A stretch of 64,000 nt of DNA from Shigella phage Shfl2: the sequence record HM035025. One strand, written 5' to 3'. The translations under genes and the position numbers were made by a program. The notes below the pieces were generated by a model. The model was given only the letters and a program-made list of their open reading frames with translations, was not told the DNA's origin and did not search any database. Of this stretch, positions 6,188 through 6,646 are shown piece after piece (position 1 is the stretch's first letter; every line of letters starts with the position of its first letter).

Positions 6188-6646
6188 TTATTTTAAATCG
6201 TCTGCCCAATCGAGTTTAAGAGGTTCTTTGTATTCACGATCTAATACGACCGGAATTTGTACATCACCGCTAAATGATAAGGGCCCAACATTATAAGACA
6301 ATGTTATATGCGGTGTGTAATCATCAAAATCATGTGTAGCACCTAGTGCCCGCGCATACATGTGTCGACAGCGCAGATATTCAGAATCTAGCACAAGTAC
6401 AAGAGTCGATCCATCTTGTGTTTTCCACACTTCTAAATGTCCAGAAGAAGCTACTTCAAAACTTCCACTCGATGGAACATATGGAACATTTACTCTCGAA
6501 TAACATATGGTCGAATGAATTTTTTCTCTAGGAACTGGATTAGGAACATGTAAAGAGCGCTGGAGTTCTTCCAGCGCGTCAAGTGTTAATTCTGAAAACT
6601 TAGCTGCTACATAAAGACCCGTTGAAAAGTCTTTAAATTCCATCAT
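6188..6646 (-). CDS. 57B: Gp57B / Acb1 anti-CBASS 2H-type cyclic-oligonucleotide phosphodiesterase, 152 aa
   Basis: Length and position match T4 57B; two H-x-T/S motifs (HSTI, HITL) typical of 2H phosphoesterases. Confidence 0.8.

Follow-up and report, generated by a model that had tools for sequence, protein, structure and literature searches.

The small gene 57B, next to the tail-fibre chaperone gene 57A in Shigella phage Shfl2 (record HM035025), raises two questions: does it encode an anti-CBASS phosphodiesterase (Acb1) in working order, and do the genes beside it belong to the same effort against host defences? A preliminary description based on the letters alone had answered yes to both. 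We analysed the locus within a window of 64 000 nt, the whole stretch taken from this record, and compared it with the corresponding regions of related phages. The first 25 kb of the window found its best matches at ~96.5% identity (vB_EcoM_G50, REP4, ime09), and a 3-kb piece around the gene matched 837 phage records, the best at 97.4% (T6, KNP5, PST, RB32 and others). Judged by these matches, the window is that of a Tequatrovirus, about 96–97% identical to its nearest sequenced relatives.

The ORF listing and its translation place the gene at 6188..6646 on the minus strand (TAA stop included), with an ATG start and a product of 152 amino acids. The H-x-[ST] pattern occurs exactly twice in the whole translation, as HST at residues 44–46 and as HIT at residues 113–115 (Table 1); the coordinates, the length and the paired motifs of the 57B product had thus all been given correctly in the preliminary description. 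The gene opens with two tandem ATG codons (ATGATGG, 6641–6646, minus strand), the first of which overlaps the TGA stop of 57A. In the T4 record X03016 (1985) the 57B product is annotated as a protein of 151 amino acids starting from the second ATG; the 152-amino acid reading is preferred here because it fits the published Acb1 numbering (H44/H113).

Table 1. Features of the acb1 (57B) locus and its surroundings, in positions of the window
Feature	Position	Strand	Basis
Gene 1, dNMP kinase, first of the 1-57A-57B run	6885..7610	-	Pfam PF21448 DNMK, 355.9 bits
57A, tail-fibre assembly chaperone	6643..6885	-	Pfam PF17594 GP57, 170.8 bits; phrog_1002
PM1-type middle promoter upstream of gene 1	7636..7661	-	Aligned to T4 X03016 annotation
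Late-promoter consensus TATAAATA in gene 1, equivalent of T4 PL1, upstream of 57A-acb1	7241..7248	-	X03016 alignment
First catalytic motif, H44-S45-T46, in KIHSTICYS	6509..6517	-	Codons CAT TCG ACC
Second catalytic motif, H113-I114-T115, in TPHITLSYN	6302..6310	-	Codons CAT ATA ACA
C-terminal lid, residues 145–152, LDWADDLK including W147	6191..6214	-	Translation, same as T4
acb1-ip5 spacer: 23-nt repeat TAATTTCACAAAGTTGTTTACAT, 13-bp hairpin (−17.4 kcal/mol), early-type promoter	6116..6190	-	
ip5, internal head protein gene, 85 aa, variable ip locus	5858..6115	-	RB15 Ip5 identity; phrog_3499
Second copy of the 23-nt repeat with early-type promoter (5816–5844), closing the ip cassette	5816..5860	-	

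Short motifs of this kind can occur by chance, but here a whole-length Pfam match and 99% identity to T4 57B argue that they did not. Residues 9–150 of the protein align with positions 1–144 of the 144-position Acb1 profile (PF23474; 202.2 bits, cut-off 27), and alignment with T4 57B (NP_049750.1; X03016) shows 151 of 152 residues to be identical, the sole difference being R33H. This likeness bears out the identification as Acb1 (gp57B) made earlier. The T4 protein has the same length of 152 amino acids and the same tetrad, stacking residues and lid, and its gene lies in the same setting, with genes 1 and 57A upstream (the latter overlapping by ATGA) and an ip gene and the tRNA cluster downstream; the two phages differ in residue 33 (R in T4, H in the window) and in the gene carried by the downstream cassette (ipI in T4, ip5 in the window). 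Homologues of acb1 were found in 1470 phage records, mostly adjoining the tail-fibre chaperone gene.

Among proteins of known structure, Acb1 of Erwinia phage FBB1 (PDB 7T26, apo; 7T27, with bound 3'3'-cGAMP) is 68% identical to the window protein over residues 9–149 (E = 1.2e-61). It has both catalytic motifs and most ligand-contacting residues in common with the window protein and differs from it by a one-residue indel near residue 80 and by F and Y in place of W74 and F107, respectively, of the window and T4 proteins. In a three-way alignment of the window, T4 and FBB1 sequences, H44, T46, H113, T115, Y12, E141 and W147 are invariant; neither His-x-Thr/Ser motif is lost relative to either characterized Acb1. 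A model obtained with AlphaFold2 from the single sequence (mean pLDDT 37.4, pTM 0.29) was of too poor a quality for fold comparison, and it is the 68% identity to 7T26 over 141 residues that implies a compact 2H phosphoesterase fold. Similarity to the structures 9Q2G and 9Q2Y (2H PDE-9, also entitled 'Anti-CBASS protein Acb1') was marginal only (E = 0.004). 2H PDE-9 belongs to the same structural group of 2H phosphodiesterases as T4 Acb1 and cleaves 3'3'-cGAMP too, but it carries its lid at the N-terminal rather than the C-terminal end and for the most part leaves alone 2'3'-c-di-AMP, a nucleotide consumed by T4 Acb1 (bioRxiv 10.1101/2025.08.21.671373).

What the protein does can be read from work on its close relatives. 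As the preliminary description had stated, the product of T4 gene 57B is an enzyme that degrades a cyclic oligonucleotide signal of CBASS: it was found by activity-guided fractionation as a 3'3'-cGAMP-degrading enzyme and named Acb1 (Hobbs et al. 2022, PMC9117128). The same study provides (i) structures of FBB1 Acb1, which has a compact 2H phosphoesterase fold, (ii) an active-site tetrad, H44/T46/H113/T115, with an inactive H44A/H113A mutant, (iii) four base-stacking residues (Y12, W74, F107 and W147) and a base-specific contact with adenine (E141) and (iv) a C-terminal lid, residues 145–152, that shuts over the bound ligand (PMC9117128). Activity of T4 Acb1 is detectable ~15 min into infection, and T4 lacking acb1 grows normally when CBASS is absent and shows a >300-fold defect when it is present (PMC9117128). 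Among viral 2H phosphodiesterases T4 Acb1 falls into a structural group of broad specificity, and the lid is required for its activity (bioRxiv 10.1101/2025.08.21.671373). Every catalytic or ligand-binding residue named by Hobbs et al. 2022 is present at the matching position of the window protein: Y12, H44, T46, W74, F107, H113, T115, E141 and W147 all stand at their published positions (PMC9117128).

The ORF is thus almost certainly acb1 (57B) of a Tequatrovirus, its predicted product being a metal-independent 2H phosphodiesterase directed against CBASS signals and expressed together with gene 1 and 57A. Such an enzyme would bind those cyclic di- and trinucleotides from host CD-NTases that contain AMP (3'3'-cGAMP, cUA, cAAA, cAAG), with Y12, W74, F107 and W147 stacking on the bases, E141 touching an adenine base and the lid closing on the ligand. 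The tetrad would then act by acid–base catalysis, passing through a 2',3'-cyclic phosphate intermediate as it breaks the bond on the 3' side of adenosine. With the signal linearized, CBASS effectors would not be activated and the infected cell would not kill itself while the phage is still at work.

Could the single substitution matter? An allele made inactive or altered in specificity by R33H is conceivable, given that this is the only difference between the two proteins and that R is also found at position 33 in a close relative: phage PM107, the closest DNA match (99.1%), encodes the T4 sequence with R33, and H33 was not seen in the other homologues translated, those of T4 and PM107. However, position 33 is a variable basic position, K in FBB1 Acb1 and R in T4 Acb1, both of them active, and H in the window protein; it is not among the catalytic, stacking and lid residues named in PMC9117128, and the reading frame is intact. 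We regard a defective or altered allele as very improbable. As the named residues are in place, the lid is intact and position 33 is variable, the window allele can be expected to act as T4 Acb1 does. A minor possibility concerns specificity: R33H may change which substrates are preferred, for instance to the disadvantage of 2'3'-c-di-AMP, and hence affect the triggering of Panoptes. Over-expressed T4 Acb1 can trigger this decoy-nucleotide defence, and deletion of the lid abolishes the triggering (bioRxiv 10.1101/2025.08.21.671373); deletion of acb1 from T4 leaves Panoptes defence unchanged (PMC12657218).

A different activity is suggested by the labels under which the family is filed. The window protein matches phrog_755, described as 'RNA ligase', and the homologue bears that label in many RefSeq records; it also gives a weak match to Pfam 2_5_RNA_ligase2 (E = 0.1), and the gene lies ~1.4 kb from a cluster of ten tRNA genes, so one could imagine a LigT-like 2'-5' RNA ligase that has the neighbouring phage tRNAs as its substrates or mends host tRNA cut by an anticodon nuclease. 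The LigT-type match (PF13563), however, falls short of the threshold (13.1 bits, cut-off 27) and is confined to residues 81–123, and the assignment to an RNA ligase family on the strength of phrog_755 and the RefSeq labels was rejected on that ground. The label appears to reflect only motifs common to the 2H superfamily: paired H-x-T/S motifs are indeed found in the LigT/2'-5' RNA ligase branch as in the window protein, but the substrates of the T4 orthologue are cyclic oligonucleotides and not RNA ends. Moreover, the T4 protein, 99% identical, is the one identified as a cGAMP-degrading enzyme by fractionation, and lysate of T4 lacking acb1 has no such activity (PMC9117128). RNA ligation or tRNA repair is very unlikely as its function, and Acb1 remains the preferred reading.

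This gene is thus already known: it is a near-identical copy of a characterized protein in its usual place, and nothing new comes from the gene itself. Its importance is mainly for annotation, and no new biology follows. Among the records listed, most label the homologues 'hypothetical protein' or 'RNA ligase'; 'anti-CBASS protein' is used only once (phage ADUt), as is 'putative phosphodiesterase' (JLBYU24). For the phage, the identity of acb1 predicts resistance to CBASS signalling by AMP-containing cyclic di- and trinucleotides and, possibly, exposure to decoy-nucleotide defences, Panoptes among them.

The setting of the gene bears on its expression. Gene order on the minus strand (gene 3, gene 1, 57A, acb1, an ip gene, three small ORFs and the tRNA cluster) is that of T4, and gene 1 and 57A are 99% identical to their T4 counterparts at the DNA level, promoter motifs included. 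The stop codon of 57A (TGA) and the start of acb1 share the tetranucleotide ATGA at 6643–6646 (junction GAAGAATGATGG). Only a weak Shine-Dalgarno sequence is visible upstream of acb1, and the lack of a strong one, together with the ATGA overlap, suggests that its translation is coupled to that of 57A. The PM1-type promoter consists of a MotA-box-like element, AATGCTTCA, at 7653–7661 and a −10 element, TATAAT, at 7636–7641; compared with T4, its spacer has one base inserted and one substituted. The late-promoter consensus within gene 1 is the sole copy on the minus strand between positions 6600 and 8300. From these conserved middle and late promoters acb1 would be transcribed with gene 1 and 57A. 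A generic scan of 5700–8400 for sigma-70 promoters and terminators returned 10 sites in comparison to 9.7 ± 2.9 in shuffled sequence, i.e. no excess, so that the expression signals described here rest on homology to the T4 annotation; from the scan only the two sites coinciding with annotated early promoters of T4 were used. When the whole window was searched against Rfam at gathering thresholds, ten tRNAs only were recovered and nothing touched acb1.

The historical name 57B, the ATGA overlap and the transcription unit shared with 57A, and the late-promoter consensus upstream of the pair would all suit a morphogenetic helper that acts with gp57A in tail-fibre assembly. T4 lacking acb1 grows like wild type when CBASS is absent (PMC9117128), and a role in tail-fibre assembly was rejected on this deletion phenotype. 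The window protein, in addition, shows no resemblance to chaperones, and its enzymatic active site is complete. We consider this the least credible of the alternatives to a CBASS-directed phosphodiesterase.

On the other side of acb1 lies the locus that had been described as the variable IPI locus. Variable it is, since other phages carry at this site ipI (T4), two ip genes (T6) or yet another arrangement (PM107), but the gene found here is ip5 and not ipI. The 85-amino acid product is 100% identical to Ip5 of RB15 (Z35082) and to Ip5 of many Tequatrovirus genomes. It shows the features of T-even internal proteins, namely a capsid-targeting leader and a position at the ip locus (phrog_3499, internal head protein). 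When compared with T4 IpI by BLASTP, the N-terminal leader alone aligns (residues 1–22, 14/26 identical): the leaders MKTFKEF...TE are similar (MKTFKEFATKTTITE in window Ip5, MKTFKEFTSTTTPVSTITE in T4 IpI), whereas the mature part of IpI (IpI/Ip1, a GmrSD inhibitor) is unrelated to that of window Ip5. What the two genes do have in common is their locus, directly downstream of 57B, and the flanking promoter and hairpin repeats. Relative to T4, the DNA is near-identical up to the first ip codons, divergent through the body of the gene and identical again past its stop codon. The 23-nt repeat follows the stop codons of both acb1 (6190–6168) and ip5 (5860–5838), and in both places a hairpin and an early-type promoter come next. 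This repeat-hairpin-promoter arrangement on both sides places the ip gene in a repeat-bounded cassette. The early-type promoter between the genes (TTTACA-17-TACTAT, 6146–6174), whose equivalent in X03016 is PE2 with a stem-loop, serves ip5 and not acb1.

Whether counter-defence functions are concentrated here, as the preliminary description held, can be answered in part. For T4 this has been shown: the adjoining acb1 and ipI were already pointed out as an anti-defence cluster by Hobbs et al. (PMC9117128), and T4 Ip1, Ip2 and Ip3 are inhibitors of GmrSD Type IV restriction enzymes, each with a target of its own (PMC12373910). Among internal proteins only these three have an established part in counter-defence, PMC12373910 making no mention of Ip5; in the window the concentration is extended from T4 by analogy with Ip1–3, and a counter-defence role for Ip5 may be supposed on that same analogy. 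In a Pfam scan of Ip5, the 61-, 136-, 95- and 116-amino acid ORFs and a 188-amino acid ORF further downstream, no family was found above threshold, so independent support for more anti-defence genes nearby was not obtained.

The 188-amino acid ORF (2617–3183, minus strand) starts with MKTYAEFLTEAAKL; this Ip-type leader (MKTYAEFLTE) is similar to the one that directs T-even internal proteins to the capsid. It belongs to phrog_2280 (unknown function), is without a Pfam family and matches 163 phage records; in every annotated record among the 25 listed it is called 'hypothetical protein'. Its product is a candidate for an extra injected protein. A tentative and rather doubtful proposal is that both Ip5 and this protein are injected inhibitors, Ip5 acting on a GmrSD-like Type IV variant that has not been matched to any Ip; if true, the two would extend the one-Ip-one-GmrSD pattern of T4 Ip1–3.

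Several other features of the window were observed. Between ~3275 and 3615 (minus strand) lie homologues of the stable 'species 2' and 'species 1' RNAs of T4, followed by a terminator hairpin at ~3282–3305; the region is highly conserved with T4, and no Rfam family was matched in it. A 61-amino acid ORF (3221..3406, phrog_28391) lies on the species RNA and probably does not encode a real protein. The ORF at 3612–4010 (minus strand; phrog_3355, unknown function) separates tRNA-Arg from the species 2 RNA, two features that adjoin directly in T4. With the listed TTG start the ORF would overlap tRNA-Arg (3981–4057); its match to the PHROG sets in only at residue 17 (MKGNVY...), the true start probably being near 3962. 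The tRNA cluster (3981–4803, minus strand) is an uninterrupted series of ten genes: Arg, Asn, Tyr, Met/Ile(cat), Thr, Ser, Pro, Gly, Leu and Gln. In comparison to T4, for which eight tRNAs are annotated (X03016), Asn(gtt) and Tyr(gta) are extra in the window, whereas the ORF that interrupts the cluster beside tRNA-Arg in T4 (ORF5) and T6 ('homing endonuclease') is absent.

At a distance from this region, two Alt-like ADP-ribosyltransferase genes lie in tandem, flanked by gene 54 and the DNA ligase gene (54057–56114 and 56118–58214, both on the minus strand). T4 has a single alt gene. The two products, of 685 and 698 amino acids, share 42% identity, and each aligns with phrog_802 from end to end.
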